From the NCBI RefSeq assembly GCF_000026545.1, contig NC_011601.1: DNA of 64,000 bases. One strand, 5' to 3'. Both the position numbers and the translations under genes were made by a program. Shown one piece after another: positions 5,848 to 7,751 of this stretch. Numbering within the stretch: the first letter of the stretch is position 1; each line of letters begins with the position of its first letter. Under the pieces are notes generated by a model. The model ran no database searches. It had not been told where the DNA came from and saw only the letters and a list, made by a program, of their open reading frames with translations. Source of the DNA: Escherichia coli O127:H6 str. E2348/69. Lineage in GTDB: Bacteria > Pseudomonadota > Gammaproteobacteria > Enterobacterales > Enterobacteriaceae.

Positions 5848-5863
5848 GACGCCCTTCTAAGAG

Positions 5864-6940
5864 TCAAGCCGTTATCGGGATGCTGTTGATCTGCCTGTTT
5901 TGATTACGCAGTAATGTATAAACTTCGCGTGAGATATAGCGCTTCAGGCAGCGTATTGCTTCCATTTTTGTATGCCCTTCCGCTACTCGTCTGGCGACAT
6001 ATTCCTTCGTTTTATCGTCAGTTCGCAAACGTCCGATGGCAATGATGTGAAGTGCACTATTTGCAGCACGATCTCCACCCCGGTTAAGTCGATAACGATT
6101 CGTTTTTCCTGAAGATACGGGAACAGGGCTGACACCACACAGTGCCGCAAAACCTGATTCTGATCTTAATCGTTGGGGATTGTCTCCTGCCGTGATCAGC
6201 AACTGCGAAGCGCTTTCGTATCCAATAGCATTACGTTTAATCAGTTCAGGCGCCAGCTCATCGACAATTGCCGCAATCATGACATCCAAATCAGCGATTT
6301 CGTCATGTAACTCGAGATAGCGTCGGGCAAGGGACTTTAATGAAATACGATAAACGTTGGTAACATTGCGGTATTCACTGGCATCAGGCCGCCAGGATCC
6401 CAGAGTCCTGATGAGCTGCATGCGCGTCATATTTCTGAGCTGTTCACGTAATTCATCCGGGGCAGAGATAATATTGGAATGGATAATCTGGAGAGCGACT
6501 CTGCGGGCTGATATTGCTGTTTTTCGGCAAGTTTTTAATACCCGCAGAGACTCAATCATGCCATTGCGCGTTTTGGGTGTGACGGTTCTTATTCCGGAGA
6601 ATGCGGCGTGAGCGGCACATTCAGCATCAATCGTGTCACTTTTACCCCGTTTGCGTCGCTCCATCCGATCTGGCGCAGTCACCTCAAGAACGTCTAACCC
6701 GGCATTCTGTAAATAGCGAAGCAGACCTGATCCATAGGTGCCTGTACACTCAACACCAATTCGCTTTAATGCCCCAAACGAAGTCATCCATGCCAGCATC
6801 TGCCGGTAACCTTGCCGTGTTGTGGAGAAAAACTGGGTCCCCAGAACTTTATTGTTCTGATCTACGACAGCGGCAACGTGCAGATCTTTATGTGTATCCA
6901 CGCCACCCACAACAGCGGTTTCCGTAACTTTACCTGCCAT
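5864..6940 (-). CDS. IS110-family DEDD transposase/recombinase
   Basis: 358-aa ORF with N-terminal RuvC-like GVDTHKD / ECTGTY motifs and C-terminal SGK...NRYRL...GG region typical of IS110 family. Confidence 0.9.
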   Translation of the reverse strand: MAGKVTETAVVGGVDTHKDLHVAAVVDQNNKVLGTQFFSTTRQGYRQMLAWMTSFGALKRIGVECTGTYGSGLLRYLQNAGLDVLEVTAPDRMERRKRGKSDTIDAECAAHAAFSGIRTVTPKTRNGMIESLRVLKTCRKTAISARRVALQIIHSNIISAPDELREQLRNMTRMQLIRTLGSWRPDASEYRNVTNVYRISLKSLARRYLELHDEIADLDVMIAAIVDELAPELIKRNAIGYESASQLLITAGDNPQRLRSESGFAALCGVSPVPVSSGKTNRYRLNRGGDRAANSALHIIAIGRLRTDDKTKEYVARRVAEGHTKMEAIRCLKRYISREVYTLLRNQNRQINSIPITA

Positions 6941-7220
6941 AACAGAGCTCCTGTGAGGAAACAGAGTTGAATCTCCAGACAGATAACCCGGACAGGACAG
7001 TAACGAGACAAACCGTCAGGCCCTTCTTGAGTCACGCGCATCGGTGAGGAGACGCCTCGCATGAAGGCGCTTCCGGCAACCGACAGGTCCAGGGCAGGAC
7101 AAAAGGGTCGATCGCTGTGTGAGTCAGGATGCGGGAAGGTCTTCACTGCATCAGTAATCACACCAGTCTGGTTAAACAGCAAACAGAGTGATGATAAAAA
7201 CTGATACCGGCATTATTACT
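6941..7220 (-). ncRNA. candidate bridge (guide) RNA in the 5' non-coding end of the IS110-family element
   Basis: non-coding 280 nt upstream of recombinase; 7111-7119 identical to left flank 7221-7229; 7087-7097 is reverse complement of right junction 5840-5850; segments near 7020-7027 and 7051-7058 match the element right end 5848-5858. Confidence 0.45.
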
Positions 7221-7751
7221 ATCGCTGTGGAACATTACCCCGGCTGGTTTACTGCGGATTTCCCAGGCCATTTTCAGCGCTTTGATGGTCAGTCTGCTGT
7301 CCGGAGAGAACGACATTGCCCAACCTACCGGTTTCCTTGCAAACAGGTCGAGAACAACGGCAAGGTATACCCAACGTTTCCCCGTCCAGATGTACGTCAC
7401 GTCGCCGCACCATACCTGATTTGGCTCTGTCACTGCGAACTGCCGCCCAAGGTGATTCGGGATAGTGACATGTTCACGACCACCTCGTTTATAACGGTGC
7501 GCAGGCTGCTGGCAACTGACCAGTCCCAGTTCTTTCATGAGCCTGCCGGCAAGCCAGCGCCCCATTCTGAAGCCTATCAGGGTTGTCATTGTGGCGATGC
7601 TTCTTGCCCCGGCAGAACCATGGCTGATGTTATGCAACTCAAGTACCTGACTGCGTAATACAGCCCGTCTGCCGTCTGGTTTTTCAGGACGGTTTTTCCA
7701 GTATCTGTAGCTGCTGCGATGAACCCCGAACACATGGCAGAGTGTGACCAC
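7221..7751 (-). pseudogene. IS911 OrfB 5' fragment
   Basis: ORF 7158..7751; native OrfB sequence ends at ...VMFHSD then reads into the IS110-family insert. Confidence 0.8.

Follow-up and report, generated by a model that had tools for sequence, protein, structure and literature searches.

The closest described system is the seekRNA of the IS110-family insertion sequence ISEc21 (Siddiquee, Pong, Hall, Ataide, Nat Commun 2024, PMC11187229). The native target of this element is CACAGCGATCAGGG, the site in the genes of IS3-family DDE transposases where their second D is encoded; insertion occurs without target duplication. For ISEc21, circle formation, a promoter at the junction of the joined ends and reprogramming of the seekRNA were demonstrated; the leader was needed for both circle formation and transposition, a 74-nt RNA co-purified with the recombinase, and 58 nt (element nt 89-147) were enough. 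The 58-nt RNA moved a mini-element with ends of only 29 bp (left) and 16 bp (right), as long as target sequence was present on its flanks. The leader was provided in trans as a fragment of nt 8-179, and the role of the long RNA was left open; the term 'donor-binding loop' is absent from the main text of that paper.

The leader analyzed here resembles the bridge RNA of IS621 (Durrant et al. 2024, PMC11208160; Hiraizumi et al. 2024, PMC11208158) in its position 5' of the recombinase gene and its two internal loops. Furthermore, left guides are in top-strand sense and right guides antisense, the predicted handshake bases lie 3' of the antisense guides, and a promoter is formed across the joined ends. 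With CazIS110-1 and IS621, RNA containing the target loop only gave partial or >10,000-fold less efficient transposition, and formation of the right junction needed the full two-loop RNA (Sun et al. 2025, bioRxiv 10.1101/2025.10.25.684509). Some elements of the IS1111 group are, like ISEc21, RNA-guided DEDD elements which naturally target other mobile elements. Among them, IS4321 and IS5075 target Tn21-family inverted repeats. ISKpn4 and ISPst6 of the same group target attC sites; unlike ISEc21, IS1111-group elements have their non-coding region 3' of the transposase, a reversed order of target matches and subterminal inverted repeats (PMC11187229).

The window, a stretch of 64,000 nt from Escherichia coli O127:H6 str. 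E2348/69, contains at 5848-7220 an intact copy of ISEc21. Over the 1370 nt queried (5851-7220), identity to NZ_LT827011 (E. coli O127:H6 E2348/69) was 100%; the matching sequence is annotated there as 'IS110-like element ISEc21 family transposase'. The element and its surroundings are composed as follows.

5848-7220, minus strand: ISEc21 insertion sequence, 1373 bp, left end at 7220 and right end at 5848.
7221-7751, minus strand: upstream part of an interrupted IS911-like (IS3 family) orfB, ending with CAC AGC GAT (His-Ser-Asp; second D of DDE).
5539-5847, minus strand: downstream part of the same orfB, starting with CAG GGC AGC (Gln-Gly-Ser).
5864-6940, minus strand: recombinase/transposase TnpEc21, 358 aa, ATG to TGA.
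7209-7220, minus strand: left-end terminus AGTAATAATGCC (right donor half-site), with a -10 hexamer AATAAT at 7212-7217.
5848-5867, minus strand: right-end terminus TTGACTCTTAGAAGGGCGTC (left donor half-site), with a -35 hexamer TTGACT (5862-5867) overlapping the TGA stop codon.

Joining of the sequence from 7221 onwards to the sequence ending at 5847 restored a single open reading frame reading ...GVMFHSD|QGSHYTS..., and other E. coli genomes contain the joined 201 nt without interruption and with 100% identity, under the annotation IS3 family transposase. Since the frame of orfB is restored and the empty site is identical, the boundaries 5848 and 7220 are exact and no target sequence was duplicated. 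An earlier note, made from the sequence alone, had placed the insertion within the HSD-QGS region of IS911 OrfB and had called for comparison with an uninterrupted orfB; the empty site confirms this placement and locates the insertion exactly between the HSD and QGS codons. The layout of the IS110 subgroup was also described properly, with a leader of 280 nt (6941-7220) 5' of the recombinase gene and 16 nt following the stop codon. The same note had regarded a transposon-within-transposon target as undescribed, which was mistaken, because insertion of ISEc21 into IS3-family transposases was already published (Siddiquee et al. 2024, PMC11187229); ISEc21, its RNA and its target have been known since 2024. 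The RNA-guided recombinase system as such was correctly recognised from the sequence alone.

TnpEc21 reached 197.9 bits against NCBIfam NF033542 'IS110 family RNA-guided transposase' (cutoff 140) and contains the Pfam domains DEDD_Tnp_IS110 (PF01548, residues 13-150) and Transposase_20 (PF02371, residues 238-315). Motifs GVDTH, GVECTG, KSDTIDA and SSGK were located at residues 13, 62, 100 and 276, respectively, and the protein agrees with the ISEc21 protein excerpt in the source data of PMC11187229. By these domains and motifs, TnpEc21 is a recombinase with a predicted DEDD (RuvC-like) N-terminal domain and an IS110-type C-terminal domain carrying the putative catalytic serine. A phmmer search against PDB chains, a set which may lack the IS621 chains, gave no match at E up to 0.01; with this reservation about the set, TnpEc21 is thus distant in sequence from the solved recombinases.

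When the right end is abutted to the left end, the arrangement TTGACT-17 nt-AATAAT is generated, and no sigma-70-like site was found on the minus strand of the integrated copy. Activity of the ISEc21 junction promoter was shown by experiment (Siddiquee et al. 2024, PMC11187229). Joining of the ends, in a circle or a tandem copy, would provide the promoter that drives both leader RNA and recombinase.

The leader was folded comparatively with RNAalifold using 60 distinct leaders. The conserved fold comprises 27 pairs in five helices, of which 95.2% were paired as compared to 87.5% in shuffles and 32-47% in slid controls; compensatory changes occurred in 14 pairs, and none of 500 shuffles reached any of these measures. 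The fold of the single sequence had a z of -2.27. In its minimum-free-energy structure, the left target guide is engaged by sequence further downstream and neither internal loop is visible; both are seen only in the comparative fold. Rfam 15 covariance models run over 5500-7600 gave no match at E up to 1; either Rfam holds no model for the ISEc21 leader RNA, or no model reaches the ISEc21 clade. The first loop contains the following features.

7071-7137, minus strand: target-binding stem-loop domain with outer stem 7123-7137/7071-7084 and cap stem 7107-7110/7098-7101 (RNAalifold, 60 leaders).
7111-7119, minus strand: left target guide with the RNA sequence CACAGCGAU, which reads like the left flank (7229-7221) and pairs with the bottom strand.
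7090-7097, minus strand: right target guide with the RNA sequence CUGCCCUG, complementary to CAGGGCAG of the right flank (5847-5840).
7087-7089, minus strand: handshake-type trinucleotide of the target loop, RNA GAC, predicted to pair with the last three bases of the element, GTC (5850-5848).

Direct reading of the sequence verified both junction matches on which the earlier note was built: 7111-7119 (ATCGCTGTG) is identical to 7221-7229, and 7087-7097 (GTCCAGGGCAG) matches the reverse complement of 5840-5850 (CTGCCCTGGAC) at every position. Together with the matches of the donor segments they were the longest matches between leader and junctions in an exhaustive search. Both target guides sit in one internal loop, the outer stem of which shows compensatory changes in 9 of 12 pairs, and stem-loop 7137-7071 corresponds to the published minimal 58-nt seekRNA (element nt 89-147). 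The reading of this segment as a target-binding loop with a sense left guide and an antisense right guide is right, as judged from structure, covariation and the published ISEc21 experiments. As in published ISEc21, the bottom-strand match lies 5' of the top-strand match, no target is duplicated, and the joined flanks equal CACAGCGATCAGGG; nothing differs materially from that report except for the target-loop cap, which is 1 nt shorter in the E2348/69 copy than in most ISEc21 copies. The window contains one other HSD-QG site (8449-8462, CACTCTGAC), which is unoccupied; 4 of the 9 positions of the left target guide are mismatched there.

A second module in the leader follows the plan of the target loop and includes candidate guides for the ends of the element itself.

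6991-7033, minus strand: putative donor-binding loop module, built on the target-loop plan GACUCA-N9-UGAC-loop-UGUC-N11-CUGUC.
7019-7027, minus strand: candidate left donor guide, RNA AGAAGGGCC, its first 8 nt in the sense of right-end positions -11 to -4 (5858-5851).
6996-7006, minus strand: putative right donor guide with handshake trinucleotide, RNA UCGUUACUGUC, reverse complement GAC|AGTAAcga.
7046-7058, minus strand: small hairpin GAGG-CGUCU-CCUC between the two loops, its helix kept with compensatory changes.

One regular expression picked out both the target and the donor module, and the donor-loop motif is unique in the window; compensatory pairs were found in its outer stem (one) and its cap stem (two). 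In GAC|AGTAAcga, GAC corresponds to the final three bases of the left target, which are GAC or, with a G.T wobble, GAT, and AGTAA to the first bases of the left end. Left-end positions 3-4 and guide positions 5-6 changed together: among the genome loci the combinations were TA/TA in 37, TC/GA in 19 and CA/TG in one, with one wobble exception, and among the metagenome loci TA/TA in 43 and TC/GA in 28. Permutation reached this covariation in 2 of 5000 trials for genome loci and in 0 of 5000 for metagenome loci; only a few evolutionary events may lie behind the switch from TA to TC.

The earlier note had proposed two donor guides, both resembling the right end. Segment 7020-7027 (GCCCTTCT) equals 5851-5858 and fits the position of the left donor guide in the second loop; the expectation that 7087-7119 falls in one internal loop and a right-end-like segment in another was thus borne out for 7020-7027. 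The other segment did not hold up: 7051-7056 (GACGCC) equals 5848-5853, yet 7051-7058 lies in the small hairpin, the loop of which varies (GAGGCATC in L002-L005) while the right end stays GGGCGTC. What the note missed is the apparent true right donor guide at 6996-7006, which would pair with the left end and not with the right end. AUUACUG (element nt 63-69, 7152-7158), antisense to C|AGTAAT, was also considered as a right donor guide and rejected, since this segment is not conserved and does not track the left end in relatives (L007 and others).

Handshake guides were defined as for IS621, namely as bases which pair with the non-cognate DNA once the strands have been exchanged. For the three terminal bases of the right end and the target-loop trinucleotide, the combinations were GTC/GAC in 41, ATC/GAT in 5 and others in 7 of 53 genome loci; for 51 metagenome loci the respective numbers were 46, 3 and 2. 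The donor-loop GUC fits target GAC or GAT at 57/57 genome loci and 69/72 metagenome loci. If these trinucleotides pair as predicted, each 11-mer matches a junction that exists only after strand exchange, following the handshake logic of IS621.

These features suggest a mechanism in which the 280-nt leader would encode the guide RNA for the element's own DEDD/serine recombinase. The 5' stem-loop 7137-7071 would act as target-binding loop, through which the element would enter the conserved HSD|QG(S) motif of IS3-family transposases in a single orientation, separating the Asp codon from the Gln codon without duplicating any base; at the present locus, the motif is that of the IS911-like orfB. 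The second loop, 7033-6991, would read the joined ends of the element: AGAAGGGC corresponds to the right end, and UUACU is complementary to the first bases of the left end. Three bases 3' of each antisense guide would pair with the final three bases of the other DNA partner, GAC with right-end GTC and GUC with target GAC or GAT. We consider it very probable that this intact ISEc21 encodes in its leader a guide RNA with target loop, donor loop, handshake bases and junction promoter.

An alternative which we regard as unlikely is that only the target stem-loop, the seekRNA, guides the recombinase, and that 6991-7033 is a 5' UTR or a protein-binding scaffold which does not pair with the ends. It draws on the published experiments: the 58-nt RNA (nt 89-147) moved the mini-element, and module 6991-7033 falls outside the trans-supplied fragment nt 8-179. 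The donor loop is thus dispensable for some detectable products, since an RNA devoid of it moved the flanked mini-element. Furthermore, the left donor guide and its right-end partner are both invariant in all relatives of both locus sets, and their pairing is a prediction from the 8-nt match. Against this stand the antisense 11-mer, which follows the changes of the left end in both locus sets (TA/TA, TC/GA and one CA/TG), the exact copy of the target-loop plan in the donor module, and the need of CazIS110-1 and IS621 for the full two-loop RNA at the right junction. The two-pathway model of CazIS110-1 (Sun et al. 2025, 10.1101/2025.10.25.684509) accounts for an abundant seekRNA beside a two-loop RNA as well as for a flank-dependent product formed without the donor loop; we infer by analogy that it may apply to ISEc21. 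Transfer in this model would be mainly of the top strand, making a shared core unnecessary.

Copies sharing identical guides were always inserted at one motif, each half of which showed 0-3 mismatches, and the IS3-family elements that they had entered were different ones. Covariation of the left guide with left flanks was 6.70 as compared to 5.93 in shuffles for 80 genome loci and 6.65 as compared to 5.94 for 120 metagenome loci (0/5000 each). For the right guide and right flanks, it was 4.97 as compared to 4.50 in the 80 genome loci (0/5000) and weak in the 120 metagenome loci (530/5000). Hence, the covariation across other copies anticipated by the earlier note was present for the left guide in both of these independent locus sets and strong for the right guide in one. 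Such data bear on the proposal that the matches are IS911 DNA copied into the leader by past imprecise recombination, for which the identity of the 9-mer to the adjoining IS911 sequence would speak. This is highly improbable: the same two segments occupy a conserved scaffold in Proteobacteria relatives that reside in other IS3-family elements, the two represent different strands of the target and co-vary with the flanks of each element, and the 11-mer spans the junction of element and flank, including 3 nt of non-IS911 sequence.

Chance was assessed with 3000 dinucleotide-preserving shuffles of the leader, searched against the 12-nt left flank and the 15-nt right junction. A match of at least 9 nt to the left flank occurred in 41 shuffles and one of at least 11 nt to the right junction in 4. 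Coincidence in a G+C-rich leader, to which the 41 single 9-nt matches would lend some credit, has a negligible probability in view of 0/3000 shuffles with both matches, the exact junction register, opposite polarity, conserved fold and covariation, and the published reprogramming of ISEc21.

The guide RNA proposed for ISEc21 differs from that of IS621 in several respects. A core dinucleotide common to target and donor and read by all four guides, as in IS621, was sought at both junctions and is not present: the target sequence is ...GCGAT|CAGG and that of the donor ...GGCGTC|AGTAA, so that the two bases before the cut are AT or AC in the former and TC in the latter. Models with a 'TC' or a 'GCG' core were rejected, as the junctions or the native target they predict differ from those observed. 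The cut follows GAT or GAC in the target and GTC in the donor, nothing is duplicated, and the putative left donor guide ends 3 nt before the cut. Unlike IS621, which targets REP sequences, ISEc21 targets a coding motif in another transposon, and its recombinase belongs to a different size class and cluster of the IS110 family (PMC11187229).

Concerning the ISEc21 target and its target-binding RNA, the present work contains nothing new and confirms published experiments. Added here are the putative donor-binding loop 6991-7033, the predicted 3-nt handshake-type pairings, the missing shared core, and, in relatives only, a candidate switchable second left guide. A putative donor loop supported by covariation in the model element of the seekRNA links the seekRNA and bridge RNA descriptions, which may be useful, and ISEc21, as a natural example without a shared core, may serve work on bridge recombinases. 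That the ISEc21 clade combines a two-loop bridge RNA lacking a shared core and using 3-nt handshakes with, in its relatives, a two-fold, two-target RNA is a tentative proposal, possible but somewhat short of probable.

Two E. coli matches without the first 139 nt, H15 and H16, were considered as a natural guide swap and rejected; H15 is decayed, contains an internal stop and is truncated beside an IS21 element.

More than half of the ISEc21 relatives, but not ISEc21 itself, have a putative second, upstream left target guide, with a separate copy of the 5' stem strand of the target loop in front of it. The literature was searched for additional or alternative left target guides and yielded nothing relevant, which is absence of evidence only. 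With two mutually exclusive folds of the RNA, a single recombinase could be directed to either of two codon versions of one protein motif; if true, such a two-state guide RNA would naturally widen the target range of one recombinase. Real insertions of two-guide relatives match one guide or the other, and near-identical elements were found at both types of site. Relatives of this kind include a Chromohalobacter/Halomonas element (L026/L027) and a Pseudomonas element (L046/L059), with target versions CACAGCGAT-... and CACTCYGAT-...; examples of the codon versions are CAC AGC GAT and CAC TCY GAT, or AAC ACY GAT and CAC TCC GAT.

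The recombinase gene lies where the earlier note had placed it (5864-6940, minus strand), with a leader of 280 nt and 16 nt beyond the stop codon. Its product matches the NCBIfam model NF033542 'IS110 family RNA-guided transposase' with 197.9 bits (cutoff 140) and contains the Pfam domains DEDD_Tnp_IS110 and Transposase_20. A query of 1370 nt (5851-7220) showed 100% identity to the E. coli O127:H6 E2348/69 chromosome, whose annotation names the gene an ISEc21 family transposase. ISEc21 copies with at least 80% of the element covered were detected in 497 of 5426 complete E. coli genomes, most of them inside features annotated as 'IS3 family transposase'. 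The proposed insertion into an IS911-like orfB at HSD-QGS was confirmed: joining the flanks gave a single reading frame (...GVMFHSD|QGSHYTS...), and comparison with uninterrupted orfB revealed the joined 201 nt unbroken, with 100% identity, in other E. coli genomes. Hence, the element comprises exactly 5848-7220 (1373 bp). ISEc21 and orfB point the same way, and no base was duplicated or lost at insertion. The region from about 5300 to 10110 is a mobile-element nest beside cybB and gapC, which also includes:

About 5308-5442, minus strand: hok-family toxin gene, adjoining the ISEc21-interrupted IS911-like element
About 8177-8750: second, frameshifted IS3-family fragment, on the other side of the IS911-like element from the hok-family gene
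8734-10107: ISEc13 (IS4-like) transposase gene, on the same side as the second IS3-family fragment

ISEc21 is the IS110-family model studied by Siddiquee et al. 2024 (PMC11187229). Circle formation and transposition were shown to need the upstream non-coding region, insertion caused no duplication, and the joined ends formed a promoter; furthermore, the RNA, in which the bottom-strand target match precedes the top-strand match, was reprogrammable. The published native target CACAGCGATCAGGG is exactly the sequence of the joined window flanks; therefore, the claim that a transposon-within-transposon target was undescribed for such elements is wrong. The observation itself is confirmed and its core interpretation is correct, but earlier work on this very element has already described the system in detail.

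All four leader segments were found as originally quoted: ATCGCTGTG at 7111-7119 equals the 9 nt of the flank at 7221-7229, GTCCAGGGCAG at 7087-7097 is the exact reverse complement of 5840-5850, and GCCCTTCT at 7020-7027 and GACGCC at 7051-7056 are copies of 5851-5858 and 5848-5853, respectively. An exhaustive search showed that these are the longest leader-junction matches. Upon dinucleotide-preserving shuffling of the leader, a left flank match of ≥9 nt was obtained in 41 of 3000 shuffles, a right junction match of ≥11 nt in 4 of 3000 and both together in 0 of 3000, a count which takes no account of the exact junction register or of the fact that the two matches have opposite polarity.

Relatives were collected from 80 genomic loci (68-99% identical in protein, many Proteobacteria) and, later, from 120 metagenomic loci found via a conserved leader motif. 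Conservation across the ISEc21 clade spans leader positions 96-232, and the leader in the window contains two instances of the pattern GACyCN-N9-yGAC-loop-GTC-N11-CnGTC (element positions 96-139 and 188-230). RNAalifold analysis of 60 distinct leaders placed both target matches in one internal loop, on opposite sides; this loop is closed by a stem of 12 pairs and carries a short GAC/GUC cap stem, and a second, similarly shaped loop comes after it. Counting pairs on this structure, 95.2% of the cells were paired as compared to 87.5% in shuffles and 32-47% with partners slid. Compensatory changes were found in 14 pairs, nine of which belong to the stem closing the target loop, and none of 500 shuffles matched any of five pair-count measures. 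The published seekRNA of ISEc21 (58 nt, nt 89-147; PMC11187229) corresponds to the first stem-loop of this fold. The cap loop of the target-binding stem-loop (7102-7106) is 1 nt shorter in E2348/69 than in most ISEc21 copies (CGACC-CTTTT-GTC in the window, CGACC-CTTTGT-GTC at locus L006); other E. coli copies aligned over 1371 nt to the 1370-nt query.

Guides and flanks covary among the relatives, all loci being oriented with the recombinase on the plus strand.

Agreement of target guides and flanks, observed and shuffled
Left 9-mer and last 9 nt of left flank (same sense), genome set: 6.70 vs 5.93, 0/5000
Left 9-mer and last 9 nt of left flank (same sense), metagenome set: 6.65 vs 5.94, 0/5000
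Right guide (antisense) and right flank, genome set: 4.97 vs 4.50, 0/5000
Right guide (antisense) and right flank, metagenome set: 4.93 vs 4.75, 530/5000

Changes in the left guide track codons for Ser (AGC and TCN), Thr (ACN) and Asn (AAC), each appearing in both guide and flank. The refutation test set in the earlier note is answered by copies with the guides of ISEc21 itself. They occupied one motif with a few mismatches in different IS3-family elements, never unrelated sequence: CACAGCGAT, CATAGCGAT, CACAGTGAT or CATAGAGAC on the left and CAGGGCAG, CAGGGTAG, CAAGGCAG, CAAGGATG, CAGGGAAG or CGGGGCAG on the right. Within the 64 kb of the window, HSD-QG is encoded at just one further site (8449-8462, minus strand, CACTCTGAC / CACTCTGACCAGGG). 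This site, located in the neighbouring IS3-family fragment, differs from the left target guide at four of nine positions and is unoccupied; it is a one-off natural negative control. The left flank of the relative at L013, GCTCAGAAGGGCCTG|AGTAATAATG, resembles the conserved donor-loop motif AGAAGGGCCTG and not the HSD codon site, and may reflect insertion into, or rearrangement with, another element's leader. L082 (E. coli 23CRST011, NZ_AP045770, 2259811-2261041) is ISEc21-like and lacks the first 139 nt, i.e. left end and target loop; its recombinase contains an internal stop and it directly follows a truncated IS21 istB gene, and natural guide replacement was rejected in favour of a decayed copy.

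A second 9-mer resembling the left guide, about 60 nt upstream of the first (element positions about 34-55), was observed in 32 of 57 genomic and at least 32 of 72 metagenomic relatives; ISEc21 itself is without it.

Carriers among genomic loci: e.g. L016, L025-L028, L044, L046/L059, L064, L069
Carriers among metagenomic loci: e.g. L087, L093, L105, L108, L134, L190, L200

The flanking motifs are those of the first 9-mer (CUGACyCN before, CGACC after) and the sequence is always different, typical pairs being CACAGCGAU with CACUCYGAU (DNA CACAGCGAT with CACTCYGAT) and AACACYGAU with CACUCCGAU. Left flanks were closer to the upstream copy in 16 (genome) and 17 (metagenome) unique cases and to the downstream copy in 11 and 14. 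Identity to the better of the two reached 7.61/9 vs 6.65/9 shuffled in the genome set and 7.62/9 vs 6.66/9 in the metagenome set (0/5000 each), and both site types are occupied by near-identical elements (L026 vs L027 and L028; L046 vs L059). The 13 nt ahead of each copy could pair, each as a 5' strand of its own, with one and the same 3' strand of the target-loop stem; the margins over shuffles are small (upstream 12.35/13 pairs vs 11.84, downstream 9.71/13 pairs vs 9.30, 0/2000 each), and the same positions vary in both 5' strands. This suggests two mutually exclusive folds, each presenting one guide; such relatives may possess a guide RNA that exists in two states and serves two kinds of target. 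A literature search returned no report of a second left target guide, which is no proof of novelty.

Of the two donor guides proposed in the earlier note, 7020-7027 (RNA AGAAGGGC) is plausible: it occupies the same place in the second loop as the left target guide in the first, and reads in the same direction as right-end positions -11 to -4. Its predicted pairing with the right end is plausible as well; both partners are invariant in every relative of both sets. The segment 7051-7058 was rejected; it lies in a GAGG-loop-CCUC hairpin, the loop of which changes to GAGGCATC in four relatives (L002-L005) while the right end remains GGGCGTC. At L008, the right end is GGGCATC and the hairpin loop has no matching change. 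The putative right donor guide is located elsewhere, at 6996-7006 (RNA UCGUUACUGUC, reverse complement GAC|AGTAAcga). Left end AGTAA occurs with UUACU at 37 (genome) and 43 (metagenome) loci, AGTCA with UGACU at 19 and 28, and AGCAA with UUGCU at one. Permutation reached this agreement in 2/5000 (genome) and 0/5000 (metagenome) cases. Since the elements with AGTCA possibly form a single lineage, there are few independent changes behind this agreement.

In the target loop, the 11-mer is antisense to GTC|CAGGGCAG, where the element's final 3 nt meet the right target. The 11-mer of the putative donor loop is antisense to GAC|AGTAA, where the final 3 nt of the left target meet the left end; a left target ending in GAT fits via a G.T wobble. 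Thus, both match junctions present only after exchange, the same logic as in the handshake guides of IS621 (Hiraizumi et al., PMC11208158). The target-loop trinucleotide and the right end combine as GAC/GTC in 41 (genome) and 46 (metagenome) cases and as GAU/ATC in 5 and 3, with 7 and 2 exceptions. In contrast to IS621, target and donor of ISEc21 share no core dinucleotide; the target is cut after GAT or GAC and the donor after GTC. A TC or GCG core was rejected, since the junctions it predicts were not observed. For CazIS110-1, Sun et al. propose a transfer moving mainly the top strand; by analogy, such a transfer in ISEc21 would make a shared core unnecessary.

For a mini-element with target sequence on its flanks, the 58-nt RNA was enough; what the longer RNA does was left open in that study (PMC11187229). 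With CazIS110-1, target-loop-only RNA was efficient for left-junction transfer only, and the full two-loop RNA was required for the right junction and complete transposition; Sun et al. explicitly read the result of Siddiquee et al. in this way. The putative donor loop of ISEc21 falls outside the nt 8-179 fragment supplied in trans (PMC11187229) and would fit this two-pathway picture. The putative donor loop, the missing core and the relatives with two guides are leads that merit attention from specialists.

In the integrated copy, the strand carrying the leader showed no sigma-70-like site. Abutting right and left end creates TTGACT-17 nt-AATAAT, in agreement with the junction promoter reported for ISEc21 (PMC11187229). 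Read-through from the IS911 promoter may be possible because ISEc21 has the same orientation. The -35 hexamer TTGACT (5862-5867) overlaps the recombinase stop TGA (5864-5866), so that promoter function constrains how the coding sequence ends. Additionally, some relatives abut another clade member head-to-tail, right-end-like meeting left-end-like sequence:

L035, L036, L038: left flank ...TAGAAGGGGTC, right flank AGTAAAAGAATG
L058: right flank AGTCAGATCA
L155 (second match), L144: right flanks starting with AGTA

Such natural end-to-end junctions, formed either by tandem arrays or by insertion beside a resident copy, would carry the junction promoter.
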